Assembly (NCBI GenBank): GCA_947625855.1
Contig: CANQPW010000002.1
Span: 3,472 to 67,471, forward strand
Direction: 5' to 3'
Origin: an uncultured Clostridia bacterium
GTDB taxonomy: Bacteria > Bacillota > Clostridia > TANB77 > CAG-465
Length of the DNA stretch: 64,000 nt
In this document: positions 1-12,677 of the stretch, in pieces
Position numbering within the stretch: the first letter of the stretch is position 1
Layout: each line of letters begins with the position of its first letter
The notes under the pieces: model-generated
What the model saw: only the letters and a program-made list of their open reading frames with translations
What the model was told of the DNA's origin: nothing
Database searches by the model: none
Translations under genes and position numbers: made by a program

Positions 1-331
1 CTTCATAATTACTTTTTTTCTTTTTTCTAGTATTTTGTCTAATTTTATTAGGATTAAAATACAAAATATTTTTATTAAGTATTATACCATTTTTATAATA
101 TATTTCTGCAATAACAGATATTAGTTCTTCATAAAATGTATAATTAGAGTCATTTCTAATAACAATATTATAATTTTCAAATTCAATATTACAATCATAT
201 TGTTTTATTACTTTATGATATCTTATAATATTTCTTAATACTTTTTTGTTTTTACTCAATCCAATTGTATTGTCTAATTTACTTAAAATTTCTTCATTTT
301 CTTTATCTAGTAAATCTTCATTTAATTCCAT
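1..331 (-). CDS. Partial CDS (first 110 codons, runs off the window edge): AAA+ SpoVK/CbbX-like N-terminal region with an ablated P-loop
   Basis: ATG at 329-331 (minus) lies 7 nt after AAGGGAG, and the frame is open to position 1. MELNEDLLDK...IGLSKNKKVLRNIIRYHKVIKQ...NIVIRNDSNYTFYEELISVIAEIYYKNGII follows the SpoVK-type pattern, but the Walker A slot (GnPGTGKT) reads RNDSNYTF. It is not in the ORF track because it is truncated. Confidence 0.4.
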   Translation of the reverse strand, partial: MELNEDLLDKENEEILSKLDNTIGLSKNKKVLRNIIRYHKVIKQYDCNIEFENYNIVIRNDSNYTFYEELISVIAEIYYKNGIILNKNILYFNPNKIRQNTRKKKKSNYE

Positions 332-462
332 AATAAAACTCCCTTCTTAATACATAATCTATTATATAATATTAATAGGAGATAGAAAAGATTGGTGGTC
401 ACATATTGCATTGCTAAAGTTTGGTATTTATAGTAATAAAATATATTATATAAGTAGTTTTT

Positions 463-1506
463 TTAATCCTCATTATTATTTAATTTCATTGTTGAAATAT
501 TTTCATCACTAAAACCTAATAGTTTTAAAGTATCCTCTTCATAATAATAAAATTTAGGTTTTTCGAAATCCATTTTAAAATATTCATAAGTATTTATAAA
601 TACTTCAAGATTTTCAATTTTACCTTTTAAGTAATTACTAACTAATTTTAATATACGATTATTTTCTTCTAATATTTCATCATAATATTCAAAACAATCA
701 TAATCCCATATAGTTCCATAAGATAGTTCTGCATTATTTTTAGGTAAATAATAGCACATTCCTGCCATAGATATTTCTCCTAAGTTTCTCATATTAGAAT
801 TTTGTATAGCTTTTTTGTCCCAAATAGTTAAATCATCTAGTACAAATATTGGATTTTCTATGTATTTTAACATCATCTCATTTATTAAAATATCACCTTT
901 TTTAAAAGGAACTGGTAAATTAATAAATAGTTCTCCAATATCACATAAATCATTATGATTTTTTTTAATTTTCGTTAGTTTAATTTGTTGGTTTATAACT
1001 ACATAATCTGCGGAAATTTCCTCATCATTATATAGATATTTTTTTGTAATAGTAAAAAAGTCTATTTCATTATCTTCTTTTATTAAACATTCTACTTTTG
1101 TAAAAACATCTTTATATGTATTATTTGAATATTCTATTACTTTATTTAAAAAGCTATAATGTTTACTATATGTTTCCAATATATATACACAATTTTCTTC
1201 AAATTTTATCATATCACTATATATACATCTTACTCTATCTATCTCATTTTGAATCATTGCTTTTACGCTATAATAATGCTTACAATTAATTCCTTCTCTA
1301 ACTTCCATATCTTGATAATTATATATTAAATCTTGATATTTTTTAATTTTTTCTTCTAAATCCATCTTTTTATTTCTATATACTAAAACTGCAAGTTCCT
1401 CTGTATTAAATTGATATTTTATCTTTCTACAATAATTACTTATTGCTTTTGAATTAATTAAATCGTAGTCATCTAACTTTTTTTTGCTATTTAAACTTTT
1501 ATCCAT
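463..1506 (-). CDS. Hypothetical protein (347 aa), last gene of the FtsZ-like/DnaJ-C/DnaB-C operon
   Basis: Long ORF, co-directional, 43 nt downstream of the DnaB-C-like gene. I recognise no family motif. Confidence 0.6.
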   Translation of the reverse strand: MDKSLNSKKKLDDYDLINSKAISNYCRKIKYQFNTEELAVLVYRNKKMDLEEKIKKYQDLIYNYQDMEVREGINCKHYYSVKAMIQNEIDRVRCIYSDMIKFEENCVYILETYSKHYSFLNKVIEYSNNTYKDVFTKVECLIKEDNEIDFFTITKKYLYNDEEISADYVVINQQIKLTKIKKNHNDLCDIGELFINLPVPFKKGDILINEMMLKYIENPIFVLDDLTIWDKKAIQNSNMRNLGEISMAGMCYYLPKNNAELSYGTIWDYDCFEYYDEILEENNRILKLVSNYLKGKIENLEVFINTYEYFKMDFEKPKFYYYEEDTLKLLGFSDENISTMKLNNNED

Positions 1507-1549
1507 AGTTTTTTATTCCTTTCTTATTATAATAATAAAAATTTTTACT

Positions 1550-2305
1550 CTATAAATCACAAAATCTTAAATGCTCTGGAATCCATTTAAGTTCAATACT
1601 TTCAGATATATTTTCTCTACTTTTAGCTATTATAATATCTGCAATATTTTTTCTTTTTGTTGATTTGTCAAAACAATCTTCTCTATGCAATAGTAAAATA
1701 ATATCTGTATATTTTTCATAATCTATATTATTAGAAGTTAAGTCTTCTAGTGTAGGAATATGATTTTTTCCATGATATACTTTTTTATATGATATATACG
1801 AAGTTACTAAAATTGGAATATTTAGCTCTTGTGCAAGATTTTTCAAGTTGCTTAAAATGCTATTTGTTTCTGCAATTTTACTTTCACCATAACTTATTAA
1901 CTCCAAATAATCAATTATAACGCAAGCTATGTCTTTTTCTTTTTTCATATTTTTAGATTTCTTACAAATTTCTTTTATAGATATTCCAGGTGTATCATCA
2001 ATATATATACTTTCTTTATCTATTTTTTCGTTGATTTTTTTAACTTTAAGTAAGTCAAAATCTTTTAAATCTAAAATATCAGGAGCTTCCATTTCTCCAG
2101 TGATACTAGCAATTTTAGATAATATACTTTCTTTTGAACATTCCAAGCTAAAAAATAGAGCTGACTTTTTATCATTTATAGCAATATTATTCAGTACATT
2201 TAACACAAAACTTGTTTTTCCAACAGAGGCTGTCCCAGCTAATAAAACCAAATCTCCCTGTTTTATTTTTACCATCTCATCTATTTTTTTAAATCCTGTT
2301 TTCAT
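1550..2305 (-). CDS. DnaB C-terminal (RecA-fold) domain-only ATPase, no N-terminal helicase domain
   Basis: KTGFKKIDEM (TGF..lD), Walker A AGTASVGKTS, FSLECS, DDTPGISI and Walker B CVIIDYLELI are collinear with DnaB_C. The SQLSR and RESGxIEQDAD motifs are not conserved (SYISYKK; LTSNNIDYEKYTD). Only 251 aa. Confidence 0.7.
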   Translation of the reverse strand: MKTGFKKIDEMVKIKQGDLVLLAGTASVGKTSFVLNVLNNIAINDKKSALFFSLECSKESILSKIASITGEMEAPDILDLKDFDLLKVKKINEKIDKESIYIDDTPGISIKEICKKSKNMKKEKDIACVIIDYLELISYGESKIAETNSILSNLKNLAQELNIPILVTSYISYKKVYHGKNHIPTLEDLTSNNIDYEKYTDIILLLHREDCFDKSTKRKNIADIIIAKSRENISESIELKWIPEHLRFCDL

Positions 2306-2333
2306 TCTTTATCACTCCTTTCAATAAATACAT

Positions 2334-2678
2334 TTATTTTATAATAATTTCTACAATCAAATTTCCTTCTTCACTATTTTTCCTTGTAGTACTACCAGAG
2401 TTTCTAATAATTATTCTATTGCCACTTTTTACTTTAGGTGGTATTTTTACTGTAATTTCATTACACACTTTGATTTCGGTATTAGAGTTTTCATCATACT
2501 TAATATATTTATACCTGATTTTTTTATTGCATCCATTCAAAGCTTCTTTTTCAGTTATTATACATTTGATATAAATATTATTTTGGTTGCCAAGTAGTTC
2601 CTTTGTACTTTTTTCCTTTATGTTCTTGCCTACAATTTCTTCTAAATCAATATTATCAAACATATTTAAAAACCTCAT
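2334..2678 (-). CDS. DnaJ C-terminal (substrate-binding beta-sandwich) domain-like protein, no J domain and no Zn finger
   Basis: CIITEKEALNGCNKKIRY...ITVKIPPKVKSGNRIIIRNSGS...EEGNLIVEIIIK matches the DnaJ/CbpA CTD pattern l..EA..G..k.i...v.IP.G...G..ir..g.G....GdL.v.i. The same pattern occurs in the CbpA-like gene at 42878-43822. Confidence 0.5.
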   Translation of the reverse strand: MRFLNMFDNIDLEEIVGKNIKEKSTKELLGNQNNIYIKCIITEKEALNGCNKKIRYKYIKYDENSNTEIKVCNEITVKIPPKVKSGNRIIIRNSGSTTRKNSEEGNLIVEIIIK

Positions 2679-2687
2679 CCTTGTAAC

Positions 2688-3266
2688 CTAAATATTTTTA
2701 TCTAATACTTCTTTTATCTTTTTAGCTGCCTCTTTATCTGAAAGTTTAAATGCATTCATTATACTTCTTGAATAACTAAAAGCTTTTTGCAATATTTCTT
2801 CATTTTTTATAACGATTAATTCATCCACACTATTTTGTATTTTTTCGATACAGTTTTTTGCGACATTCATTCGCTTTTTTCCTTCAAATAGAGAAGGGAA
2901 GGTGACAATTGCAATAGTTTTTATTTTTAGCTTATTAGTCAATTTGGCAATTTCTTCAATTTCACCTGTGCCAGTTCCACCACCCAATCCTGCTACTAAT
3001 ATGACTAAGCTTACATCTTCAACTACTTTTTCTATTTCATCTTTACTTATTTCTACAGCTTTTTTTCCCATTTCGGGATTTCCAGAACAGTCTAAACCAT
3101 TTGTAATATTATCTCCTATTAACATTTTCGTGCTACAATTAGAAAAATTAATATCATCTTTATCAGGACTAATAACAAATGTATTTATATCCTCGTAATT
3201 TTCTATATAATTATTAACTATACTAACTCCAGCACCACCTAATGCGATTATTTTAAAATCAACCAT
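2688..3266 (-). CDS. FtsZ-like N-terminal GTPase domain-only protein (192 aa)
   Basis: Collinear with the FtsZ N-domain: IIALGGAGVSIVN (T1), GLDCSGNPEMGKKA (T3), VAGLGGGTGTG (T4 tubulin signature), VTFPSLFEGKKR (T5), ELIVIKNEEIL (T6). It ends inside helix H7, so there is no T7 NxDxxD loop and no C-terminal domain. Start placed at ATG 3266, 7 nt after AAAGGAGA; the track start at 3293 lacks an RBS. Confidence 0.8.
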   Translation of the reverse strand: MVDFKIIALGGAGVSIVNNYIENYEDINTFVISPDKDDINFSNCSTKMLIGDNITNGLDCSGNPEMGKKAVEISKDEIEKVVEDVSLVILVAGLGGGTGTGEIEEIAKLTNKLKIKTIAIVTFPSLFEGKKRMNVAKNCIEKIQNSVDELIVIKNEEILQKAFSYSRSIMNAFKLSDKEAAKKIKEVLDKNI

Positions 3267-3303
3267 TTTTTCATCTCCTTTTTTATATAACATTTCTATA
3301 TTT

Positions 3304-3332
3304 ATTATAATAATTAAATTTCAATATTTCAA
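3304..3332 (-). promoter_or_regulatory. Sigma-A-type promoter of the FtsZ-like operon
   Basis: Minus strand reads TTGAAA, a 17-nt spacer, then TATAAT, about 40 nt upstream of the ATG at 3266. Confidence 0.5.
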
Positions 3333-3360
3333 AGTATTTGGTCATATAATGTATAGCCAT

Positions 3361-3394
3361 AAAAAAATAACTAATACATAAACAATATTAGTTA
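3361..3394 (-). terminator. Rho-independent terminator ending the PD-(D/E)xK/WYL/222-aa unit
   Basis: Minus strand reads TAACTAATA, loop, TATTAGTTA, followed by TTTTTTT, just after the stop at 3417. Confidence 0.6.
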
Positions 3395-3416
3395 CTTTTA
3401 TACAACATAAAAAATT

Positions 3417-4085
3417 TTAACATCTCCAATTTGCAAATGGATATTTATATGATTTACGTTCATCACTGTTTTCAGATACTCTTTTATTATATTCTTGTAG
3501 AAGTAAAGTCTCTAATTTACCTGCCTTCTCATATGCTTTATCACCATTTACATATATCCAAAAAATATATAAATCTTTTCTTTTTTTTTCGTCTATTTGC
3601 CATATAGCTCTTCCACCTTTATGGTTTTGAGCATTTCCAACTCCATATTTCATATATAGGCCTAACCTATTATATAAATCTGAATTTTTTTCTCCACCAG
3701 CTTTACCAATATATAATATTTTTTTCAAATACTCATCTAAATCATTTAAAGTTTTTAATTTTCTTTCCAATTTATCTATACCATATTCATTTCCTATCAT
3801 AAATTGAAATTTAGAATAATTATTCTCATCTTTATAAATATTCTCTATTTCATCTACTACTATATTATCATCTCCAGCATTTATTATAAAATATACCCCA
3901 AATTTTTCACTTTTTTCTTTAAATTTTTCATTAAACTTATTAATTTTAAAAGTATATTTATCTTTTTCTTTTACAATAATATCTGTTAGTTTACATACAT
4001 TTGATTCACCAAGCTCTATATTATTATCTTTTGCATTTTTTTCTATAAACCCTTTTATATTTTCCATAATTTCTTCATGTATCAT
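3417..4085 (-). CDS. Hypothetical protein, possible divergent GIY-YIG-like nuclease
   Basis: FGVYFII ... ILYIGKAGGEKNSDLYNRLGLY ... GGRAIWQ ... KLETLLLQEY resembles GIY / YIG / R / E elements, but about 60 aa separate GVY from YIG. Weak call. Confidence 0.3.
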   Translation of the reverse strand: MIHEEIMENIKGFIEKNAKDNNIELGESNVCKLTDIIVKEKDKYTFKINKFNEKFKEKSEKFGVYFIINAGDDNIVVDEIENIYKDENNYSKFQFMIGNEYGIDKLERKLKTLNDLDEYLKKILYIGKAGGEKNSDLYNRLGLYMKYGVGNAQNHKGGRAIWQIDEKKRKDLYIFWIYVNGDKAYEKAGKLETLLLQEYNKRVSENSDERKSYKYPFANWRC

Positions 4086-4100
4086 TTTAACATTCCCCTT

Positions 4101-5090
4101 TTATTTATATTTTTCATAAGCATTTTTTATTATATCTTTCATTTCTTCTCTTAAATTATCTGGTTTTATAATCGTTAACATATCAAGATTTCTCATAGCC
4201 CATAGTTTAAAACCTATTGGATTAGCATTCAAACTCATTTGAAATGTATCAGAATTTACTGGCTTAATTTTTACTTTTTTGCCAAATCTTTCAATAACTT
4301 CACCTAACAAACACTCATCACATCTTGCTTCTATTTGGACTTCATTTCCACTAAATATTTCAACTGCTGTGTCTGTATATTCTTCAATTTCCTTTTCTGT
4401 TTTGTGTATAGCAATCTTTTGACTTGTTTCTTGTAAATTTTTGATTCTATCTAACCTATAATGAAAAAACTCGTTATTTCCATCTTTAATAGCAAGCATA
4501 TAAAACTGCTGTTTATCATAAATAATAGCATAAGGAGATACTGTTGGTATGCTTACAATTTTCTTATCTATTCTGTCTCCATTTATATAATACTTCCAAT
4601 ATTCAAATCTAATTTTATTTTTATTTAAGATACTATTACTTATATCTTCAATATTTTTTATAACTTCAACATTATTAGTTCTTCCTTTAGGAGAATATAC
4701 TCTATAATTTTTTACCTTTTCATTTTCATATATATTTTGAAGATTTTTACACTTTTTTATTATACCTTTTGCAATTCTTTCTTCTATAAATGTTGAATAA
4801 CTAAATGTATCTATTATTGCTCTGATTTCACCAGGCTCAAAGTCTGTTTCTGGATCATTAGTAATATAATAACCTATTTTATTGTCATTGTATGTACTAA
4901 TATCATAACCAAACTTTTCCTTCAGCAAATTGATATTTCTTCTTATAGTTCTTGGATCAATATCTTCTCCATATACTTCATTTATCTTTTCTTTTAATTC
5001 TGATATAGATAATTTATGTTCTTCATCACTATATTTTTTTAATACATTTAATATGTATAATATATTTCCATTCTTTTCGTATAAATCCAT
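4101..5090 (-). CDS. HTH + WYL + WCX-type transcriptional regulator (BrxR/CapW-like architecture)
   Basis: N-terminal wHTH (ILYILNVLKKYSDEEHKLSISELKEKI...DPRTIRRNINLL). Central WYL region (VSPYAIIYDKQQFYMLA...FFHYRLDRIKNL). C-terminal extension. Confidence 0.8.
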   Translation of the reverse strand: MDLYEKNGNILYILNVLKKYSDEEHKLSISELKEKINEVYGEDIDPRTIRRNINLLKEKFGYDISTYNDNKIGYYITNDPETDFEPGEIRAIIDTFSYSTFIEERIAKGIIKKCKNLQNIYENEKVKNYRVYSPKGRTNNVEVIKNIEDISNSILNKNKIRFEYWKYYINGDRIDKKIVSIPTVSPYAIIYDKQQFYMLAIKDGNNEFFHYRLDRIKNLQETSQKIAIHKTEKEIEEYTDTAVEIFSGNEVQIEARCDECLLGEVIERFGKKVKIKPVNSDTFQMSLNANPIGFKLWAMRNLDMLTIIKPDNLREEMKDIIKNAYEKYK

Positions 5091-5117
5091 ATTACCTCTC
5101 CTATATATTCTTTTAAA

Positions 5118-6590
5118 TTAATTATTTTTTTCACTTTTTATTTCTGCATCTAAAATATTTGAGTCCTCTCTACTTTTTATTACTATTGTATTATTTTCTA
5201 ATTTTCCCTTTATTATCTCTATTATTCCTTTTATAACGTCAAAAGATTTTTCTTCTTCAGCTGGTATATTTATAGTAAAAATATTAATTTCAGGTTGTGT
5301 TTTTGTACTTCCATCACCTGATGGGTTTATTTTATATTTTATATTATTTAAAATTATATTTTCATCTTCAAACAATTTTACAACTTCATTATATATATTT
5401 GTTTGATCAAATTTTTTTGCATAATACTTATTATACAATTTATATACATATTTATTTTCTTTATCATAATATGATATTGGATGATTATCATTTCTTACCT
5501 CAAACTTTTTACCATTTTCTTGTTTGAAATTTTTATTTGATTGTAAATTTTCATACTCTTCTTTATCACTTATCGGTTCCTCTTTTTTTGAAATTCTTAA
5601 CATTATTGTATAATCATTTTTTTTATTATAATATTCTTTTTCATAAAAATTTATTTTTATAAAGGCATAGTTGTTGAACAAATCTGACTTAATTTTTAAA
5701 TTTATTGGTATATTACACCACCATGTTGGTTTATTTCCAGAAGTTGATTTTCCAAAATATACTCGCTTACCACTTGGTACTGATATTTTAATTTTTTTCC
5801 AATCATCTTCTTTTTTCTTTTCTTTTTTTACTCCTATATATTCTTTTTCTACTTCTTCGTCAGAATATCCTTTTTCTTTTAAAAATTCGGTTTCTATTTC
5901 TTTAAAAAAGGAAAAAAATATAATATCCTTTTTTCTTTCTTTATAATCAATAACACTATTTACTATCTTTTTACTTGCACATTCTTCGATAGCCTTTATA
6001 TACTCTAAATAGTCTTTAAAATATTCTTGATTTATATCTTGCTCATATTTTTGTAATAATTCATATATTCCATATATTTTATCATCATCAGCAGATTGTC
6101 TTTTTCTTACATATATACAATCAACTTTTTTTAGATTTATTCCGCACTCATCATAAGGTTTATAATAACAAGTTAATATATCATCTAATTTATCCTTTTC
6201 TATTATATCTTCCTTTTCTATATCATTTTTAAAATTATCTGTAATGCTATCTTTATACCTATCAATTTGTGAATCATGTTCTAATGATTGTACTTTATCC
6301 TCAATTATAATAACCAAATATTTATCTGTTTTTTTGTTATGTATAGATACTAATACATCAATATGATAATATTGTACATCGCACTTTATCTCTATATTAT
6401 CTTCATCACTATCTAAAAACTTAACCCATTCTTCTTTTTCTTTTATAATATTTCGTACAAATTCTTTTGCTAAATTCTTTATATCATTATTTTCCTTATT
6501 TCTTGGAATATTTATCCAATTTACTAACCAAGCTAAAAAAGCATCTTGAGATAGTTCTTTTGTAGCAAATTTAAAAATATTATTTTCCAT
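5118..6590 (-). CDS. PD-(D/E)xK nuclease-superfamily protein with an uncharacterised 250-aa C-terminal region
   Basis: N-terminus FKFATKELSQDAFLAWLVNW, then HIDVLV...YLVIIIEDKVQSLEHDSQIDRY (D...ExK plus Q..RY), typical of stand-alone PDDEXK families. Confidence 0.6.
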   Translation of the reverse strand: MENNIFKFATKELSQDAFLAWLVNWINIPRNKENNDIKNLAKEFVRNIIKEKEEWVKFLDSDEDNIEIKCDVQYYHIDVLVSIHNKKTDKYLVIIIEDKVQSLEHDSQIDRYKDSITDNFKNDIEKEDIIEKDKLDDILTCYYKPYDECGINLKKVDCIYVRKRQSADDDKIYGIYELLQKYEQDINQEYFKDYLEYIKAIEECASKKIVNSVIDYKERKKDIIFFSFFKEIETEFLKEKGYSDEEVEKEYIGVKKEKKKEDDWKKIKISVPSGKRVYFGKSTSGNKPTWWCNIPINLKIKSDLFNNYAFIKINFYEKEYYNKKNDYTIMLRISKKEEPISDKEEYENLQSNKNFKQENGKKFEVRNDNHPISYYDKENKYVYKLYNKYYAKKFDQTNIYNEVVKLFEDENIILNNIKYKINPSGDGSTKTQPEINIFTINIPAEEEKSFDVIKGIIEIIKGKLENNTIVIKSREDSNILDAEIKSEKNN

Positions 6591-6818
6591 TTTCTACTTT
6601 TCCTCCTATTCTTTTTATTTTTCAATACTTTAACCATAGCTAAAATATTTAAAACTTATTTCAAATACTTTTTTAATATTATATCATATTTTTATTTATT
6701 TCAACATTATTGGTCATAAGATGTACTGTTTTATATGATAATAGGATAACTTTTACATTAAAAAAGATTACTAATATCTAATATGTAATTTATATATAAT
6801 AAAAATATAAAAAATTTG

Positions 6819-6925
6819 CAAAAATGTGATAAAATATCAAAAATGTGATGCAAAAATGTGATATATTTTATAATTTTTATTGTAAAAGTGTGATTTGCGT
6901 GATATAATATAGATAAGGGTGATAT
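6819..6925 (+). promoter_or_regulatory. Operator-like direct-repeat array overlapping the promoter of the DUF4143 ATPase gene
   Basis: CAAAAATGTGAT occurs three times exactly (6819-6830, 6838-6849, 6851-6862). Degenerate copies follow: AAAAGTGTGAT (6884-6894), GCGTGAT (6898-6904) and GGGTGAT (6917-6923). TTGTAA-17-TATAAT (6880-6909) has GTGAT copies in its spacer. Confidence 0.6.
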
Positions 6926-6927
6926 TT

Positions 6928-8235
6928 ATGCATAGATATATAAAGGATAAATTAATAGAATGGAAAAATAAAGAAAACAGAAAACCATTAATATTAAAAG
7001 GAGCAAGACAAGTTGGAAAAACATATATATTAAAAGAATTTGGAAAAGAAGAATATGAAAATATTGCATATTTTAACTTTGATCATGATGAAGCATTAAA
7101 AGATTTATTTAAAAATACAAAAGATCCAAAAAGAATACTAGAACAGCTAACTTTTGCAAGTGGAAGTGTGATAAAACCTGAAAAAACACTCATCATTTTT
7201 GATGAAATACAAGAATGTCCAGATGCTTTAAATTCATTAAAATATTTTAATGAAGATGCAAATGAATATCATATCGTTTGTGCAGGTAGTTTGCTTGGAA
7301 TCAGACTTTCTCATACTTCATTTCCTGTTGGAAAAGTAGAATATCTTGAAATGTATCCTATGACATTTACTGAGTTTCTAATTGCAGATGGTTGCCAAAA
7401 TCTAGTAGAATATATGAATTCGATAACTACTATTGAAAAAATACCAGATATTATATTTAACCAATTAAACGAAAAATTAAAATCTTATTTCATAATTGGT
7501 GGTATGCCTGAAGTAGTTAATATCTGGATAAATACTAGAAATATTGAAATGGTAAATGAAATACAACAGCAAATATTAAAAGGATATGAAAATGACTTTG
7601 GAAAGCATACAGAAGGAATAAATAACTATTCAAAAATTTCTATTATATGGGAAAGTATTGTATCTCAGCTTTCTAAAGAAAATAAAAAATTTTTATATCA
7701 AGTAGCAAAAGAGGGAGCAAGAGCTAGAGAATATGAGGACGCTATAAACTGGTTAAATGATGCTAATTTAGTAAATAAAATATTTAACATTACTAAACCA
7801 GATTTTCCACTTAATGCTTATACGGATTTAAGTAGTTTTAAATTGTATATGTCTGATATTGGATTGCTTAGAAGAAAAGCTAATTTAGATTCAAGAATTG
7901 TAATAGAAGGAAATAAGTTATTTGAAGAATTTAAAGGTGCATTAACAGAAAACTATGTTCTAAATATGCTAATTTTTATAAACAACGAAATTCCAAATTA
8001 TTATGTATTTGACAGACATGAAATTGATTTTATAATACAAGAAAAAAATAAAATAGTACCAATAGAGGTAAAATCTGGTAATACTAATAGTTTAACCAAA
8101 TTTAATAGTACGAATGATAATGAAATATCAATTAGATTTTCTACTAATAATTTAGATAAAAGCGGTAAAATCTTAAATATACCATTATTTATGGTAGAGT
8201 ATACAAATAAATTACTTGATATTGCAAACAATTAA
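6928..8235 (+). CDS. AAA-type ATPase of the AAA_14 + DUF4143 family
   Basis: Walker A LKGARQVGKTY, Walker B LIIFDEIQ, typical length and C-terminal DUF4143-like region. Start moved to ATG 6928 behind AAGGGTGA. Confidence 0.75.
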   Translation: MHRYIKDKLIEWKNKENRKPLILKGARQVGKTYILKEFGKEEYENIAYFNFDHDEALKDLFKNTKDPKRILEQLTFASGSVIKPEKTLIIFDEIQECPDALNSLKYFNEDANEYHIVCAGSLLGIRLSHTSFPVGKVEYLEMYPMTFTEFLIADGCQNLVEYMNSITTIEKIPDIIFNQLNEKLKSYFIIGGMPEVVNIWINTRNIEMVNEIQQQILKGYENDFGKHTEGINNYSKISIIWESIVSQLSKENKKFLYQVAKEGARAREYEDAINWLNDANLVNKIFNITKPDFPLNAYTDLSSFKLYMSDIGLLRRKANLDSRIVIEGNKLFEEFKGALTENYVLNMLIFINNEIPNYYVFDRHEIDFIIQEKNKIVPIEVKSGNTNSLTKFNSTNDNEISIRFSTNNLDKSGKILNIPLFMVEYTNKLLDIANN

Positions 8236-9673: not shown

Positions 9674-10618
9674 TTATATAGTTAATGCTAAACTTTGATT
9701 CATACTACCTGTTAATTCAACATCTTGTATTTGCCCATCAACCACTTTAAACAATGTTTTAAAAAACTTTACTACGTTTTGTTTTGAAATATTATTTTGC
9801 TCTTTACTAATATAGTTTTCATTTAGTAAAAAGTCTAAATAGCTATATACATTATTTAATAACAATAGAAAAATTTGTTTTTCATATTCGTTTCTTTTAA
9901 TAACAGATAAATTGTTATAATCATTAAAAATCTTTTCTCTTTTTTCAAGTAAAATAATTACCATATTTTTTAAATTTTCTAAAGCATTATTATGTTCTGA
10001 TATAATATCTGAAATTTTTAAATAAAAATAATTTTCCATTAATTGCTTCCATGCATTTACTTCATCATCAAGAGTATTATCAATTCTATTTAAAACTCTT
10101 TCTAACATATCTTGTGACATCATTACTTTAAGATTTGCCCTATCAAATGAATCTTTTACAAGTTTTTTTAATTCATTTAAGCCAAACCCATATTTACCAA
10201 AAACTGATACTGTTACAAAATTTTTAGATGCATCTTTTACCGAAACATCATTTTCACCTATTAATAGCTCCCTATTGGTAATAGTATGGCATACACCATT
10301 TATCCCAAATATTATTCCACACCTCAATAAATCTTGAGGCGGGCAAAACTCCATAAGCCACTCTTTATACGAGTTTTGCTTTGCTACTAATATTTTATCT
10401 CCCTGACCATTCCAGCACCTACCATAATTTGCCCAGCATAAAGTCCGATCTAAAGACACTAAAAAGGCATGTGAATCATCTTGAACATAAGTACTACTGG
10501 GCATAGCATAAGCTTCAGTCATAAGAATAGAATATTTATCACGAAATGCAACATGATTTTTATTAATAACTATTTCACCAGGATTAGGATTTTTAACATT
10601 ATAAAAATTATTATTCAT
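9674..10618 (-). CDS. Hypothetical protein (314 aa)
   Basis: Long ORF with GGAGGTG before the ATG and a strong 16-bp terminator hairpin (9607-9645). Cys/Trp-rich N-terminal half, helical C-terminal half. No family recognised. Confidence 0.6.
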   Translation of the reverse strand: MNNNFYNVKNPNPGEIVINKNHVAFRDKYSILMTEAYAMPSSTYVQDDSHAFLVSLDRTLCWANYGRCWNGQGDKILVAKQNSYKEWLMEFCPPQDLLRCGIIFGINGVCHTITNRELLIGENDVSVKDASKNFVTVSVFGKYGFGLNELKKLVKDSFDRANLKVMMSQDMLERVLNRIDNTLDDEVNAWKQLMENYFYLKISDIISEHNNALENLKNMVIILLEKREKIFNDYNNLSVIKRNEYEKQIFLLLLNNVYSYLDFLLNENYISKEQNNISKQNVVKFFKTLFKVVDGQIQDVELTGSMNQSLALTI

Positions 10619-10898
10619 ATAGTCACCTCCAGTTTATATTTGCAATATTTCACTTTTTAAGTATTACTAATAAAAATTATATTAAGTTTTTTTAAAAGTA
10701 CTATAAATAATATTTTTTAATAACCATATAATAGAAATTTCTATTTAATTTTAAAATTTTATTTTCCTATTATTTTAACATAAAAAACTTAAAATATCAA
10801 CTATGTTAAATTTATATAACAAAAAAAGGTCCTATAATAACTGTTATAGGTTTAACCTAAACGTTATTATAGAACCAAATTGTTATTTTTTATATAAA

Positions 10899-12587
10899 TT
10901 AATTATTGCTTAATCTATCTTTCTTTATTAATAATACAGCAATAACAGCAATTGATACTAATGCTACAACAATTAATGCACTTAATGCTATATCACCAGT
11001 ACTTGGTGCTTCTGATTTTTCTTCTATTACAATTATTTCAGTTTGATCTTTAACACCATTTTTTGCTTTTACAGTTATTATTGCTTTACCAGCTTTATTA
11101 GCAACAAGTTTTTGATTTTCATCCACAGATACAATTTCTGAATCTGAAGATGTTATCTCATATTCTAAAGGTAAAGATGCATTTTCAGGAAGTACAGTTA
11201 TATCTATATTTGTAGTTTCTCCTACTTTTAATTCCTTTTTATCAACTTTTGCCTTTATTGAAGTAATATCAACAAATATAGCTGTAATTTCTATTGTTGC
11301 TTCTTTATCACCAACTATTGCAGTTATTGTAGCTTTTCCTTCTTTTAATGCCTTTACAACACCATTTTCATCAATTGAAATAATGTCTGGTTCTGAACTT
11401 TTCCAAGTTACATTAGAAACATCTATATTGTTACTTATAACACTCAATACTTCTGTGTGACCTATACTTAGCTCAAAATCATTTTCATTTATTAAAATTG
11501 TATCTTCTGGTAATGCTTCAACTTTTACATTACAAGTTGCAGTAAATGTATTACCATCTTCGTTTGCAGTTACAGTTATTACAGTTTCACCAGCACTTAT
11601 TGCTACGATTTCACCATTATTAACAGTAGCTACATTTTCTTCAGAAGATTCCCAAAGAAGTGTACCTTCATATATTACACCATCTGGTATATATCTTACA
11701 CTTAAGTTTTCTTTTTGACCTTCTGTTAATGTTACATCCACTTTATTAAGTTCTATTTTTTGTAATGCAACTTTTGGTTGATTTACAGTTACTTTACAAG
11801 AAACCTTAAAATCACCAACTTCTGCATATATATATGCAATACCTTTACTTAATCCTGTAACTGTACCATTATAATCTACAATTGCAACACTATCATCTGA
11901 TGTAGACCATTTTATAGTCTTATCCTCAGTAGTATCACTAGGTGTTATATTTACAGTTAAATTAAATACATCATTTACATCTATTTCTTTTTCTGTTTCA
12001 TTTAATTCAATCTTTTCTATTGCTACAACTTTTCTATTTATACTTGTAGTTAAAATATCAGTTGATTCAGTAATAACTTCTGCTCTATTATGTCCTATTG
12101 AAGCTATTGTTGTAAAATTCTGATCAGGAGCTATAACTAATTGTGATTCCATATTATCTGGAATATTAGCACTAATAGTTCCAAGTTCAACTACATCTAC
12201 ATCATTAGTGTTTAATTCTTTTGTTCCAACATAATAAAGATTTAATCTTTTATCTCCATTAGCTTCTTCACTAAATTCAGAATTTTTTAATATATCCTCT
12301 TTTAGACTATCACTCCACCTAAAATCTATATCTGCTGAATCAATTACATCTATGTCAAGTCCTACTTGAAAAGATGCAACACTAGCATCATCTGCCATTC
12401 CTAAACTTACATGTATTAGTTTTTCGTCATTTTCATCTTGTGTTAATATTACACTAGTTCTATCTCTAGATATATGAGGTTCACTAATATTATCAAATAC
12501 ACCACTTACAGCTAATACAAGAGTTGTAGTAGATAATAAAACGATAGCTAGAAGAACAACAATTATATATAATTTTTTCTTATTCAT
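10899..12587 (-). CDS. Cell-surface protein: signal peptide, possible cohesin-like module, about five Big_2 repeats, sortase-type C-terminal anchor
   Basis: N-terminal KKK plus hydrophobic signal. Repeats of the form V..I.L......l..G....L.v...P.......W.SS....A.V...G.V.a...G.a.ItA. C-terminus is APSTGD, then a 24-aa hydrophobic stretch, then KKDR. Confidence 0.75.
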   Translation of the reverse strand: MNKKKLYIIVVLLAIVLLSTTTLVLAVSGVFDNISEPHISRDRTSVILTQDENDEKLIHVSLGMADDASVASFQVGLDIDVIDSADIDFRWSDSLKEDILKNSEFSEEANGDKRLNLYYVGTKELNTNDVDVVELGTISANIPDNMESQLVIAPDQNFTTIASIGHNRAEVITESTDILTTSINRKVVAIEKIELNETEKEIDVNDVFNLTVNITPSDTTEDKTIKWSTSDDSVAIVDYNGTVTGLSKGIAYIYAEVGDFKVSCKVTVNQPKVALQKIELNKVDVTLTEGQKENLSVRYIPDGVIYEGTLLWESSEENVATVNNGEIVAISAGETVITVTANEDGNTFTATCNVKVEALPEDTILINENDFELSIGHTEVLSVISNNIDVSNVTWKSSEPDIISIDENGVVKALKEGKATITAIVGDKEATIEITAIFVDITSIKAKVDKKELKVGETTNIDITVLPENASLPLEYEITSSDSEIVSVDENQKLVANKAGKAIITVKAKNGVKDQTEIIVIEEKSEAPSTGDIALSALIVVALVSIAVIAVLLIKKDRLSNN

Positions 12588-12677
12588 TTTTTCCTCCTTC
12601 TAAATTTTATATCAATAAATTTTATTTATCTTGTAAAGTAATCTAACTTAATAGATTACTTTACAAATTTATTTTTT

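Follow-up and report, generated by a model that had tools for sequence, protein, structure and literature searches.

The window analysed here, a stretch of 64,000 nucleotides, carries a set of minus-strand genes arranged in three transcription units: a PD-(D/E)XK nuclease, a WYL regulator and a GIY-YIG-like protein (unit 1); fragments of FtsZ (FtsZ_N), DnaJ (DnaJ_C) and DnaB (DnaB_C) followed by a 347-aa protein, ORPH (unit 2); and an AAA+ gene (unit 3). The genes and their regulatory elements are as follows, in the direction of transcription.

6706..6729, minus strand: box copy 1, GTACATCTTATGACCAA, PWM score 17.9 bits, about 115 nt upstream of the PD-(D/E)XK gene
5118..6590, minus strand: PD-(D/E)XK-type nuclease-like protein, 490 aa (Pfam PDDEXK_4, 4.6e-5), hypervariable slot of the locus
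4101..5090, minus strand: WYL-domain transcription regulator, 329 aa (Pfam WYL, 1.4e-9)
3417..4085, minus strand: fast-evolving 222-aa protein, probably a GIY-YIG-type nuclease (motif pattern, weak Foldseek matches)
3360..3402, minus strand: AT-rich hairpin and T-run, probable intrinsic terminator of the nuclease-WYL-GIY-YIG unit (folding, orthologous loci)
3334..3357, minus strand: box copy 2, TATACATTATATGACCAA, PWM score 26.8 bits, abutting the -35 of the operon promoter
3304..3332, minus strand: sigma-70-type promoter TTGAAA-17-TATAAT of the four-gene operon (11/12 matches)
2688..3266 (ORF to 3293), minus strand: FtsZ N-terminal GTP-binding domain only, 192 aa (Pfam, TIGR ftsZ, S. aureus alignment)
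2334..2663 (ORF to 2678), minus strand: DnaJ C-terminal domain I only, 109 aa (Pfam DnaJ_C)
1550..2305, minus strand: DnaB C-terminal RecA-like domain only, 251 aa (DnaB_C match, Geobacillus DnaB alignment)
463..1506, minus strand: ORPH, 347 aa, core of the system, predicted new fold (homologue family, confident model)
391..414, minus strand: box copy 3, AATGCAATATGTGACCACC, PWM score 28.5 bits, upstream of the AAA+ gene
1..331, minus strand: CbbX/SpoVK/EccA-type AAA+ ATPase, first 110 codons, pseudo-AAA N-terminal module; continues beyond the window edge

The four genes of unit 2 are co-directional (ORFs 3293..2688, 2678..2334, 2305..1550 and 1506..463) with intergenic gaps of 9, 28 and 43 nt, exactly as an earlier note on this DNA had read them. 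Shine-Dalgarno positions and orthologues favour internal starts for the first two ORFs, at 3266 and 2663, which leaves the FtsZ fragment with the 192 aa already assigned to it and shortens the DnaJ fragment from 114 to 109 aa. The four-gene order recurs in three orthologous loci (L007, L008 and L085), and intact ORFs of the same lengths and order were found in at least four genomes and about 10 protein clusters; the relatives compared are all MAG contigs, many of them truncated, with script-derived gene calls. The fragments end cleanly at domain boundaries, and the intergenic gaps are too short to hold remnants of full-length genes.

A shared box connects the three transcription units

The promoter that had been proposed for the operon, TTGAAA-17-TATAAT (3332-3304), is indeed the top-scoring one in 7 kb, and both of its hexamers are conserved across four orthologous loci. 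The proposed terminator fared less clearly. The hairpin at 3360-3402 has 17-nt arms that are 88% complementary, is followed by a T-run, is stable (dG -17.2 kcal/mol, z -4.35) and recurs in 3 of 4 orthologous loci, L007 showing a compensatory change; however, a consensus terminator scanner did not call it.

Whatever its effect on transcription, this element does not insulate the operon from the WYL module in terms of regulation, as had been suggested, since the same box is found on all three units. This 16-nt box (ATACAtTATrTGACCA), to our knowledge new, stands immediately upstream of the -35 of the nuclease-WYL unit, of the FtsZ operon and of the AAA+ gene. A PWM scan of both strands of the 64 kb returned exactly three sites, one per transcription unit. 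The core of copy 2 is conserved in the window, L007, L008 and L085, and the box, the -35 and the -10 are all conserved in the four orthologous loci. Across the related loci, a subset of which had served to train the PWM, 81 sites were found on the system strand and 0 on the other, against 4 in shuffled sequence. They lie upstream of AAA+ (19), DnaB_C (11), c5 (9; no Pfam or PDB match), DUF2779, DnaJ_C and DUF3846 (4 each), FtsZ, MBL nuclease, ORPH and PD-(D/E)XK (3 each) and PolC-like::ORPH genes (2), and in 57 of 76 distinct sites the -10 hexamer begins exactly 28-29 nt after the box. A box site was present in 32 of the 39 loci having a WYL gene versus 13 of the 39 without one, and some box-bearing loci showed no WYL gene within 10 kb. 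This co-occurrence suggests that the WYL protein may bind the box. All together, these results show that positions 6729..1 and the remainder of the AAA+ gene outside the window form one co-regulated locus, rather than an operon beside an unrelated WYL module.

Incomplete copies of FtsZ, DnaJ and DnaB are maintained by selection

Profile searches confirmed the FtsZ, DnaJ and DnaB assignments made in the earlier note. The FtsZ fragment matches the Pfam Tubulin/FtsZ GTPase domain (1.2e-32), covers positions 16-203 of the 353 of the TIGR ftsZ profile, aligns with residues 6-196 of S. aureus FtsZ and keeps the GGGTGTG signature whole. Its end point falls in what we take to be helix H7, so that it would lack the T7 loop, the C-terminal domain and the tail. 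The FtsZ_N family is narrow: it comprises about 10 clusters that share 69-84% identity, beyond which identity falls to about 40%. The DnaJ fragment matches positions 4-71 of the 152 of Pfam DnaJ_C (4.1e-9) and, partially, NCBIfam DnaJ and CbpA; neither a J domain nor a zinc finger was detected in it by profile search. The DnaB fragment matches the whole DnaB_C domain (3.6e-52) and aligns with residues 187-441 of Geobacillus DnaB, and profile search found no N-terminal domain. It keeps Walker A and B, has lost the arginine finger (DLRESG to DLTSNN) and carries SYISY in place of the SQLSR motif. Every fragment thus lacks elements essential to its parent enzyme, in line with the previous view that these are extra, non-working copies, and dnaX and gyrA were confirmed elsewhere in the window.

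The fragments are nonetheless under purifying selection, with dN/dS of 0.2-0.5 (about 0.3 for FtsZ_N, 0.26-0.29 in most DnaJ_C pairs and 0.2-0.4 for DnaB_C; NG86 estimates, dS being unreliable at 25% GC). These pieces of essential proteins have all lost catalytic or assembly elements, yet they are maintained. Mosaic exchange between loci is also apparent: DnaJ_C dS was 0.017 where WYL dS was 0.75.

Unit 1 combines a conserved regulator with fast-evolving nuclease genes. The WYL regulator is 80-88% identical in L007, L008 and L085 (dN/dS 0.10-0.22), matches PADLOC WYL models (3e-21) and, weakly, a Pfam wHTH domain, and gave no sequence match among solved WYL regulators. The PD-(D/E)XK-type protein matches the PADLOC candidate family PDC-S26 (1.7e-9) and can be aligned to sister loci over its first ~100 aa only (38-39% identity). 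Indeed, neighbouring nuclease genes turn over fast and the slot is hypervariable, being occupied in other loci by conflict-type genes (PADLOC: dGTPase, 5e-56; PDC-S02; PDC-S26; Cas4-like) and by GmrSD and an ADP-ribosylglycohydrolase. The 222-aa protein has no Pfam match and only 7 homologues in 5.8 billion proteins. It carries an invariant G-V-Y ... L-Y-I-G-K-A ... R ... E ... N pattern, and the top six Foldseek PDB matches of its AlphaFold model (pLDDT 78) are all to the GIY-YIG enzyme R.Eco29kI, albeit weak (E 0.19-0.7); it is probably a GIY-YIG-type nuclease. Its dN/dS is 0.6-0.9, versus 0.2-0.5 for the fragments.

ORPH and a CbbX-type AAA+ protein form the core of the system

The 347-aa product had been described as an orphan. 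It has no match in Pfam, NCBIfam or PADLOC, and its sole PHROGs match is marginal (E 0.0046) and annotated as of unknown function. It is, however, no orphan: 147 homologues were found, in a family of about 1,690 representative clusters. The structure model is confident (pLDDT 87, pTM 0.84) and gave no structural match in PDB or BFVD; ORPH is thus a large uncharacterised family with a predicted new fold. In relatives it is fused to PolC-like, DnaB_C or DnaB_N domains (PolC-like::ORPH 28 times, DnaB_C::ORPH 3 times, and also ORPH::DnaB_N), usually as the C-terminal domain of a PolC-type polymerase paralogue, its ancestral position. The polymerases form a decay series: the PDIDLN motif is intact in forms of ~1,115 aa, lost in forms of 750-950 aa and absent from the window, and catalytic motifs are missing from many related polymerases. 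Full-length PolC-like forms keep the catalytic aspartates, so the ancestral system, at least, may synthesise DNA, an activity that suits repair or the replication of an element no less than conflict. No polymerase is left in the window, while sister genomes keep a remnant of one. In this lineage, decay of the polymerase was followed by its deletion, and the FtsZ_N and DnaJ_C fragments were added; the gene set of the window is a deletion derivative of a longer locus of sister genomes. Split or truncated genes are frequent, and in several related loci ORPH or the polymerase gene is split.

The window gene at 331..1 had been noted as an AAA+ protein with an erased P-loop. This is true of the in-window part only, because its homologues carry intact Walker A (GNPGTGKT) and Walker B (ILFIDE) motifs further downstream, at residues ~295-380. 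The part in the window, 87% identical to its L007 counterpart (L007_12), is the P-loop-less N-terminal pseudo-AAA module of a 528-550-aa CbbX-type AAA+ protein, which consists of this ~270-aa degenerate AAA-like module followed by AAA and AAA_lid_6 domains (a homologue matches CbbX at 2e-52 and EccA1 at 5e-38 in PDB). ORPH, paired with this AAA+ protein, is the conserved core of the system.

Distribution and links to mobile elements

The families do co-occur in other genomes. Among 73 non-identical ORPH loci, 37 carry a DnaB_C-like gene, 32 the AAA+ gene, 38 a WYL gene, 10 a DnaJ_C-only gene and 7 an FtsZ paralogue. The locus family occurs in uncultured gut Clostridia with a recurrent core of ORPH, the CbbX-type AAA+ protein and a DnaB_C-like pseudo-helicase. 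DnaJ_C-only genes are found in 10 of 38 WYL-type loci versus 0 of 35 others. These counts and the family distributions show that FtsZ_N and DnaJ_C are accessory, lineage-restricted additions.

Residence in prophages or plasmids had been named as evidence against a defence system. WYL-type loci lie outside both: no ORPH occurs among 50,697 phage records, among 72,556 plasmids or in IMG/VR, no integrase, relaxase, capsid or partition gene recurs within 10 kb of WYL-type loci (the window included), no flanking tRNA was found at them, and they are surrounded by ordinary chromosomal genes, which differ between close relatives. Distant members, however, do reside in integrative mobile elements. ORPH homologues at 36-40% identity sit there beside DnaB_C-like genes and behind the same box, in the company of tyrosine integrases, DUF927 or D5 primase-helicases, TraG, ParA, resolvase, RadC, ToxN, DUF3846 and DUF6809, some of the elements lying at tRNA-Arg. 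The DUF3846-DnaB_C-ORPH arrangement is also found inside WYL-type loci, and a tail-less FtsZ was found on a conjugative element. The distant members thus lend real weight to the earlier suggestion of a replication or segregation remnant of a mobile element, as the origin of the module.

Discussion

We know of no described system with this gene content. Consistent with the same view in the earlier note, PADLOC assigned no known defence family to the four operon genes, apart from one marginal match of the DnaB_C protein to mad8 (E 0.001). We tentatively propose, at a little short of an even chance, that the locus is an undescribed conflict module, probably WYL-controlled, derived from a mobile-element replication module. 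The WYL protein would bind the box and switch the regulon on in response to ssDNA or another nucleic acid arising from phage or mobile-element attack or DNA damage, as in characterised WYL regulators, which are sensors of ssDNA with a division inhibitor or defence systems under their control (PMC9186387, PMC11804915, PMC11662680). The products would then act as structural mimics. FtsZ_N, which keeps the nucleotide face but lacks the T7 loop, would therefore cap FtsZ or sequester it and so arrest division; division is blocked when the truncated FtsZ paralogue FtsZ1 of Agrobacterium is overexpressed (bioRxiv 10.1101/2025.09.29.679267). DnaB_C, lacking the arginine finger, may join or occupy hexamers of DnaB, or bind its partners, stalling use of the replisome, and DnaJ domain I may compete for DnaK or clients. 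ORPH would link the AAA+ remodeller to such replisome-like parts, and DNA would be attacked by the two fast-evolving nucleases. The net function would be conflict, as a defence resembling abortive infection or as a means of excluding rival elements, and it would be exerted by a replication module that was domesticated from a mobile element.

A WYL-activated response to DNA damage, in which PolC-like::ORPH, the RecA-fold DnaB_C and the nucleases process damaged DNA, FtsZ_N provides a division checkpoint in the manner of SulA or DidA and stalled complexes are remodelled by the AAA+ protein, seems to us unlikely. The placement of the box, adjoining the -35 on its upstream side with a constant 28-29 nt to the -10, is typical of activators, and characterised WYL activators sense ssDNA, DriD inducing a division inhibitor (PMC9186387, PMC11804915). 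The PDIDLN motif of full-length PolC-like forms, the chromosomal surroundings free of recurrent integrases and adjacent tRNAs, and the sbcCD genes that adjoin ORPH and AAA+ in Lachnospiraceae also agree with repair. However, gene content turns over fast, with a hypervariable nuclease slot and cassette exchange between sister genomes; genes are often split or truncated; DnaB_C and many polymerases lack catalytic motifs, and the window holds no polymerase at all; the variable slot is filled by defence-type genes (dGTPase, GmrSD, PDC families); and flanks differ between close relatives. These are not features that one would expect in a housekeeping repair regulon.

The non-catalytic copies of FtsZ, DnaB, DnaJ and PolC could instead serve to bait those proteins of phages or plasmids which hijack or inhibit the host counterparts, engagement of a bait being read out by ORPH and the AAA+ protein, which would license the nucleases. 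Bait-like domains of different essential proteins have indeed been swapped or fused onto one constant domain, ORPH, next to a constant AAA+ partner, selection persists on fragments whose catalytic residues are gone, and fast-evolving nuclease genes belong to the same regulon. Against such an integrated-decoy or guard system, which we regard as rather improbable, the fragments sit behind a dedicated regulated promoter, while baits are normally constitutive; they are not hypervariable (dN/dS ~0.3), as arms-race bait surfaces often are; polymerase fusions with intact active sites resemble enzymes, not baits; and signalling by ORPH and binding of foreign proteins by the fragments are conjecture.

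We give the same low probability to a selfish module of a cryptic integrative element, i.e. a replication, establishment or host-takeover cassette that recruits or subverts the host replisome and pauses division during element replication or transfer, with defence genes as cargo. The ORPH homologues of integrase/primase/TraG elements, some at tRNA-Arg, the DUF3846-DnaB_C-ORPH arrangement within WYL-type loci, the differing flanks of sister genomes and the tail-less FtsZ of a conjugative element all point this way, but WYL-type loci have neither recurrent mobility, capsid or partition genes nor a flanking tRNA, ORPH is missing from the phage, plasmid and IMG/VR collections, and the window, having lost helicase and polymerase functions, cannot replicate anything itself. 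Lastly, the split ORPH or polymerase genes of several related loci, the polymerase truncation series and the deletion relative to L007 and L008 might suggest functionless debris left by replication and division genes that had once been duplicated or acquired, a reading that is very improbable given the intact ORFs of same length and order in several genomes and protein clusters, the purifying selection, the conserved promoter, box and Shine-Dalgarno sequences, and truncations that coincide cleanly with domain boundaries.

The conflict module that we favour resembles several known systems in part. Like the integrated decoys of plant NLRs, it has copies of pathogen-target domains fused to or beside a constant module; this likeness is one of concept, without homology, and sensing by the window system is drawn by analogy. 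Like ImuA-ImuB-DnaE2, the related loci pair a catalytically impaired RecA-fold ATPase-like protein with a C-family polymerase paralogue under a link to a stress regulator, but the polymerase is PolC-type rather than DnaE2 and the regulator WYL rather than LexA, no Y-family ImuB-like gene was found, ORPH and AAA+ are added and the window has no polymerase.

FtsZ_N would be expected to cap or sequester FtsZ as do SulA, MciZ and Kil, and like Agrobacterium FtsZ1 it is an extra FtsZ-derived protein unable to build a functional membrane-tethered Z-ring. It differs in being shorter than FtsZ1, since it presumably stops within H7, short of the T7 loop and of the entire C-terminal domain, and in being co-transcribed with DnaJ, DnaB and ORPH pieces in a regulated island. 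The AAA+ partner, by its matches and its AAA and AAA_lid_6 domains, belongs with CbbX, SpoVK and EccA, enzymes that remodel specific protein complexes; it differs in its degenerate N-terminal module and its fixed genomic partnership with ORPH, and has no conserved Rubisco, sporulation or ESX context.

As in the WYL modules DriD-didA of Caulobacter, mycobacterial PafBC and CapW/BrxR of CBASS/BREX, a WYL regulator encoded in the locus accompanies a promoter-proximal box on several units (PMC9186387, PMC11804915, PMC11662680); the regulon includes a candidate division inhibitor, like that of DriD, and nucleases or defence-type genes, like those of CapW and BrxR. Unlike in the described WYL regulons, the regulated genes are unrelated to theirs, the regulator matches no solved WYL protein in sequence and box binding is predicted. 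Finally, the accessory regions of integrative and conjugative elements of gut Firmicutes (DUF3846, DUF6809, RadC, DnaB_C-like) also bring together ORPH, DnaB_C-like and DUF3846 genes, with the same box before ORPH, whereas window-type loci, devoid of integrase and transfer genes, carry a WYL regulator, a nuclease slot and an AAA+ protein.

A four-gene operon with single-domain FtsZ, DnaJ and DnaB products

The window is AT-rich (G+C of about 25%) and chromosomal: it carries RNase P RNA, SRP RNA and tRNAs, and encodes dnaX, gyrA, thyA, glycosyltransferases and surface proteins. ORF calls on its minus strand delimit four genes, with intergenic gaps of 9, 28 and 43 nt:

3293..2688, minus strand: gene 1, FtsZ_N, a single-domain FtsZ fragment
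2678..2334, minus strand: gene 2, DnaJ_C, a single-domain DnaJ fragment
2305..1550, minus strand: gene 3, DnaB_C, a single-domain DnaB fragment
1506..463, minus strand: gene 4, ORPH, a 347-aa protein

Judging from Shine-Dalgarno positions and orthologues, FtsZ_N really starts at 3266 (giving 192 aa) and DnaJ_C at 2663 (giving 109 aa). The earlier note had claimed an operon of this composition, which the ORF calls and profile matches confirm, behind a promoter (TTGAAA-17-TATAAT, 3332-3304) that indeed scores highest within 7 kb. It had also placed an insulating terminator ahead of the operon. A hairpin followed by a T-run does exist at 3360-3402 (-17.2 kcal/mol, z -4.35), a possible terminator of the upstream unit; a consensus terminator scanner missed it because the sequence is AT-rich, but folding and conservation favour it. 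In a regulatory sense, the insulation attributed to it fails on the co-regulation described below.

FtsZ_N matches the Pfam Tubulin/FtsZ GTPase family (1.2e-32), covers positions 16-203 of the 353 in the TIGR ftsZ profile and aligns to residues 6-196 of S. aureus FtsZ, keeping the signature GGGTGTG (GGGTG(T/S)G in the family). Pfam found no FtsZ_C domain in it, and the stop codon lies 9 nt before the next ORF. The end point, around S. aureus residue 196, is presumably within helix H7, ahead of the T7 loop and the C-terminal domain, both of which the protein appears to lack. In FtsZ, the T7 synergy loop and FtsZ_C are needed for polymer-activated GTPase activity and filament growth, and the C-terminal linker and tail peptide provide membrane tethering. 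FtsZ_N, 192 residues long (201 when counted from the first ATG), also has no linker or conserved tail peptide. The family is narrow, with about 10 clusters at 69-84% identity and the next relatives at about 40%; other loci carry differing FtsZ truncations, for example 320-aa forms with both globular domains and no tail. A TubZ-like segregation role was rejected: FtsZ_N is an FtsZ-clade protein (Tubulin_2 matched only at E 0.032) and there is no partner centromere protein.

A further FtsZ, P0150 (313 aa, both globular domains, no C-terminal tail), was seen at loci L081-L084 (10001-10942 in L081). It was met on at least 24 contigs and immediately follows an AAA_15/AAA_21 ATPase, amid a relaxase, MobC/NikA, DUF3848/3849 and a 2,662-aa protein. 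The element looks conjugative, and P0150 would be one more case of a truncated FtsZ borne by a mobile element, with no relation to the ORPH system.

The DnaJ_C fragment matches Pfam DnaJ_C above the gathering score (4.1e-9, profile positions 4-71 of 152), partially matches the DnaJ and CbpA models and weakly matches the CTD region of RSP16. By these matches it retains the C-terminal client-binding beta-sandwich (CTD I); the profile search found neither a J domain with its HPD motif (PF00226) nor a zinc finger. The DnaB_C fragment holds a complete Pfam DnaB_C domain (3.6e-52, residues 1-249) and corresponds to Geobacillus DnaB residues 187-441. Pfam matches DnaB_C alone; the N-terminal domain (PF00772), which in DnaB serves collar formation and primase binding, is absent. 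Walker A (GTASVGKTS) and Walker B (VIIDYLE) align with the DnaB motifs. Where DnaB has DLRESGxIEQDAD, comprising the arginine finger and the DNA-binding loop, the window protein has DLTSNNIDYEKYTD: DLTSNN replaces DLRESG, and thus the arginine finger is gone, while SYISY replaces the SQLSR sensor motif. RESG is missing from every DnaB_C protein of the system. All together, the profile searches agree with the three domain assignments of the earlier note.

ORPH belongs to a large family with recurrent partners

The 347-aa protein had been taken for an orphan; it is instead the core of a larger system. We counted 147 homologues in a 90%-identity collection and 1,690 representative clusters (E <= 0.001, 50%-identity library), some fused to the DnaB N-terminal domain, DnaB_C or the Pol III finger domain. 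Searches of ORPH against Pfam, NCBIfam and PADLOC gave no match, and PHROGs a single marginal one (E 0.0046). An AlphaFold model built from 92 sequences (pLDDT 87, pTM 0.84) retrieved nothing significant from the PDB (best E 0.33) or BFVD with Foldseek, and a profile search of PDB sequences returned coiled-coil noise only.

A scan of 185,579 species genomes yielded 74 distinct ORPH loci, all from gut MAGs and nearly all from uncultured Clostridia. All relatives are MAG contigs, two distant members lying on contigs shorter than 3 kb, without gene context. ORFs were called, clustered and searched with cluster-built HMMs, the gene calls and clusters coming from our own script. Co-occurrence was scored within 10 kb; the counts are minimum values, since many contigs are truncated.

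Table. Families within 10 kb of ORPH at 73 non-identical loci (lower bounds).
WYL regulator: 38/73
DnaB_C-like protein: 37/73
PolC-like: 33/73
CbbX-type AAA+: 32/73
DUF2779 (Cas4-like nuclease): 21/73
c5, a family of about 280 aa: 18/73
DnaJ_C-only: 10/73
FtsZ paralogue: 7/73
222-aa family: 5/73

The association of DnaB_C, DnaJ_C-only proteins and FtsZ paralogues with the 347-aa family therefore recurs elsewhere. The core of the system is ORPH, the CbbX-type AAA+ and a DnaB_C-like pseudo-helicase; FtsZ_N and DnaJ_C are lineage-specific additions. A large uncharacterised family is thereby given a partner, the CbbX-type AAA+.

Loci L071, L075 and L077 (about 10001-16500; Lachnospiraceae, Roseburia and Eubacterium MAGs) hold a 325-aa ORPH and a 495-aa AAA ATPase followed by sbcD-sbcC, and none of them has WYL, DnaB_C or polymerase genes; they could represent a minimal ORPH-AAA pair.

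The c5 family (9156-9998 in L001, with members at 18 further loci) is a conserved gene of the system. In its C-terminal half it shares the PFKxGD...ILK motif region with ORPH, a weak resemblance to the C-terminal half of that protein (hhalign E 0.007, probability 5%), and it may be a diverged ORPH paralogue. Its identification as ImuB, a clamp or another known part was rejected, with no Pfam or PDB match.

Polymerase fusions and the reduced state of the window locus

ORPH forms the C-terminal domain of a larger protein, 750-1,340 aa long, in 28 loci; the N-terminal part of that protein consists of PHP, DNA_pol3_alpha and finger domains. The polymerase is PolC-type: the L018 fusion (L018_4) matches Geobacillus PolC 3f2b at 6.6e-121 and DnaE at 1e-25. 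Forms of about 1,115 aa keep the catalytic PDIDLN; neither the PHP domain nor the second PDIDLN aspartate survives in forms of 750-950 aa. The polymerases form a decay series. Pfam found no proofreading exonuclease, HHH_6 or OB domain in the fused forms, and the part of PolC beyond the fingers is likewise missing, an absence judged from Pfam, whereas the true DnaE of locus L024 matches HHH_6 and OB. ORPH lies beyond the last polymerase-matching residue (query about 766, equivalent to about 1385 of the 1474-residue PolC), and the idea that it is the diverged C-terminal end of PolC was rejected for want of Pfam or PDB support. In L024, a full-length DnaE (348-3959; PHP, alpha, finger, HHH_6, OB; 1,203 aa) and a 430-aa divergent double DnaB_C-like protein (4652-5944) lie directly upstream of the system.

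The window has no PolC-type polymerase. Its sister loci L007 and L008, whose proteins are 80-94% identical to those of the window, have the order WYL, 222-aa family, FtsZ_N, DnaJ_C, DnaB_C (intact in L007, not called in L008), ORPH-A (365 aa; two split ORFs in L008), a 753-aa fusion of a truncated PolC remnant with ORPH-B, and AAA+. Residues 9-347 of the window ORPH match residues 415-753 of this fusion, so both ORPH-A and the remnant of the polymerase have been lost from the window. The five-gene order of the window recurs at locus L085, where ORPH is longer.

The partial gene at 331..1 encodes the N-terminus of the AAA+ protein (87% identity to the sister-locus AAA+), which the earlier note described as having an erased P-loop. 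This holds only for the N-terminal module, of which the window covers the first 110 residues. Full-length orthologues match CbbX (2e-52) and EccA1; those of the sister loci and L085 (L007_12, L008_11, L085) have Walker A/B and AAA_lid_6, with GNPGTGKT and ILFIDE at residues of about 295-380. The module of about 270 aa that precedes these motifs resembles a second, degenerate copy of that AAA unit.

Selection and exchange among loci

Substitution rates were compared between the window, L007, L008 and L085, dS being rough at 25% G+C.

Table. dN/dS between the window, L007, L008 and L085 (dS rough at 25% G+C).
WYL: 0.10-0.22
FtsZ_N: about 0.3
DnaJ_C: 0.26-0.29
DnaB_C: 0.2-0.4
ORPH: 0.24-0.54
AAA+: 0.20-0.25
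222-aa gene: 0.6-0.9

The three fragments are maintained under selection, crippled though they are. DnaJ_C is near-identical between the window (2334-2663) and L007 (6516-6845), with a dS of 0.017 against 0.75 for WYL; likewise, it shows a dS of 0.035 between L008 and L085. Genes adjacent to it differ at dS 0.2-0.8. These values point to mosaic loci and recent cassette exchange between them.

Three transcription units share one regulatory box

Alignment of the regions upstream of the operon in four loci revealed a conserved ATACAnT..TGACCA beside conserved -35 and -10 hexamers. Of 92 loci, 40 contain the 9-mer ATRTGACCA, which nearly always lies on the system strand, a short distance upstream of system genes. 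A PWM of the 16-nt box (ATACAtTATrTGACCA), built from 31 sites, was run over both strands of the 64-kb window and found exactly three sites:

6729-6706: box upstream of the PD-(D/E)XK-WYL-222-aa unit
3357-3334: box upstream of the FtsZ_N operon
414-391: box upstream of the AAA+ gene

The operon, said in the earlier note to be insulated from the WYL module, is thus co-regulated with it. In 1.17 Mb of related loci, a subset of which had served to train the PWM, there were 81 sites on the system strand and 0 on the opposite strand, against 4 in shuffled sequence. Downstream genes were AAA+ (19), DnaB_C (11), c5 (9), DUF2779, DnaJ_C and DUF3846 (4 each), FtsZ, MBL nuclease, ORPH and PD-(D/E)XK (3 each) and PolC-like::ORPH (2). 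At 57 of 76 distinct sites, a -10 hexamer begins at a distance of 28-29 nt from the box; the box therefore spans roughly -56 to -41, abutting the -35.

The box is present in 32/39 loci with WYL, compared with 13/39 without. The WYL protein has the wHTH-WYL-WCX layout by Pfam and PADLOC: Pfam WYL matches at 1.4e-9, HTH_12 weakly at residues 12-59, and PADLOC WYL models align over residues 23-242 and 143-324. Regulators of this class bind operators in the promoters of neighbouring genes and respond to ssDNA or a nucleotide ligand. The box shared by three units and its association with WYL make the WYL protein encoded there the obvious candidate for its regulator.

Probable mobile-element ancestry

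A tblastn search with ORPH found no match in INPHARED phages or PLSDB plasmids, and there was no relative in IMG/VR. The WYL-type loci are flanked by ordinary chromosomal genes, with no recurrent integrase, transposase, phage or capsid family and no adjacent tRNA. On these grounds, a prophage or plasmid origin of the window locus was rejected.

More distant relatives do lie inside mobile elements. ORPH homologues at 36-40% identity adjoin DnaB_C-like genes within integrative elements that carry tyrosine integrases, DUF927 or D5 primase-helicases, TraG, ParA, resolvase, RadC, ToxN, DUF3846 and DUF6809, and there too the box lies upstream of ORPH. At L055 and L059, ORPH and a DnaB_C-like gene adjoin a 702-aa D5/DUF5906 primase-helicase in the vicinity of tRNA-Arg (191-267 and 2206-2283); these look like a small integrative element or satellite.

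A variable nuclease slot and defence-type neighbours

Even sister loci differ in the genes that lie upstream of WYL, and the nuclease genes turn over fast. At various loci, this slot matched PADLOC dGTPase (5e-56), the candidate families PDC-S02 and PDC-S26, and Cas4; other genes in it matched GmrSD, ADP-ribosylglycohydrolase, MBL nuclease and HD. The 222-aa protein, with no Pfam match, is a possible GIY-YIG nuclease, a class marked by GIY and YIG strands with conserved Arg, Glu and Asn. It has a GIY...YIG...R...E...N pattern invariant in 7 sequences; the six best PDB matches of its model (Foldseek) were all R.Eco29kI, and weak (E 0.19-0.7, TM about 0.3). In PADLOC-DB 2.0, FtsZ_N, DnaJ_C, ORPH, PolC-like::ORPH and c5 had no match, DnaB_C matched mad8 at E 0.001 only, and AAA+ matched IetA (1e-7) and TRIP13, a generic AAA similarity. 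Matches to PDC-S26, PDC-S01, PDC-S02 and dGTPase came from neighbours only.

One such neighbour is a plus-strand AAA_14 and DUF4143 ATPase (6919-8235), matching PDC-S01 over its full length (1.7e-171). It is absent from L007 and L008, and is therefore a separate neighbour. Upstream of it, at 6816-6894, are four direct repeats of TGCAAAAATGTGAT (spacings 19, 13 and 32 nt), distinct from the system box and a possible operator array. Elsewhere, a minus-strand 1,894-aa protein (12678-18362; peptidase M60, enhancin-like, with F5/8 type C, fn3 and dockerin) adjoins a Big_2 surface protein (10899-12587); its domains suggest a mucin- or glycoprotein-targeting, cellulosome-like surface enzyme.

Possible functions and comparison with known systems

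The locus is conserved, selected and co-regulated. We tentatively favour a function in conflict, that is, defence or exclusion of rival elements, at somewhat under an even chance. The WYL protein would control the box and, by analogy with DriD, PafBC and CapW (PMC9186387, PMC11804915, PMC11662680), could answer ssDNA-type cues. The fragments would then act as mimics, capping FtsZ, occupying DnaB assemblies and competing for DnaK or clients, with ORPH and AAA+ as a putative remodelling or tethering core. There is a precedent for a division block by a truncated FtsZ paralogue (bioRxiv 10.1101/2025.09.29.679267).

A WYL-driven damage-response cassette, which the same analogy would suit, we consider unlikely; defence-type genes recur in the slot beside WYL. 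Quite unlikely, in our view, is a decoy or guard role, a prokaryotic integrated-decoy immune system. The non-catalytic FtsZ, DnaB, DnaJ and PolC copies would be baits for hijacking phages or plasmids, placed beside or fused to the constant, new-fold ORPH working with the CbbX-type AAA+. Once a bait is engaged, the co-regulated nucleases would be triggered; an ssDNA-type WYL switch would prime the whole regulon. The crippled yet selected fragments fit such baits, and they fit the mimics of the conflict reading too. Just as doubtful is a still-selfish module, for which the mobile relatives speak and against which stands the chromosomal setting of the window locus. Inert debris is scarcely credible, pseudogenes having been rejected on intact ORFs that end at domain boundaries, recur in other genomes and show dN/dS of 0.2-0.5.

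If the mimics act as proposed under the conflict reading, this would be the first such system known to us: a cell, or a domesticated element, would use truncated copies of proteins from its own replisome, divisome and chaperone machinery, all under one dedicated regulator, to arrest or protect those machines. The loci also trace, step by step, how a mobile-element module with a polymerase became a set of non-catalytic fragments still under selection. They bear on WYL regulator wiring in Firmicutes and on bacterial decoys of essential proteins, and the box can be used for finding further members.

The gene content matched no PADLOC system, Pfam architecture, solved structure or publication that we found, and the literature on DUF2779/DnaE/PolC with WYL, on SpoVK in anti-phage defence and on DUF3846 gave no account of such a system. 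The ImuA-ImuB-DnaE2 mutasome combines a Y-family ImuB with a DnaE2-clade polymerase, whereas here the polymerase is PolC-type, and c5, the single conserved partner left unassigned, has no Pfam or PDB counterpart.
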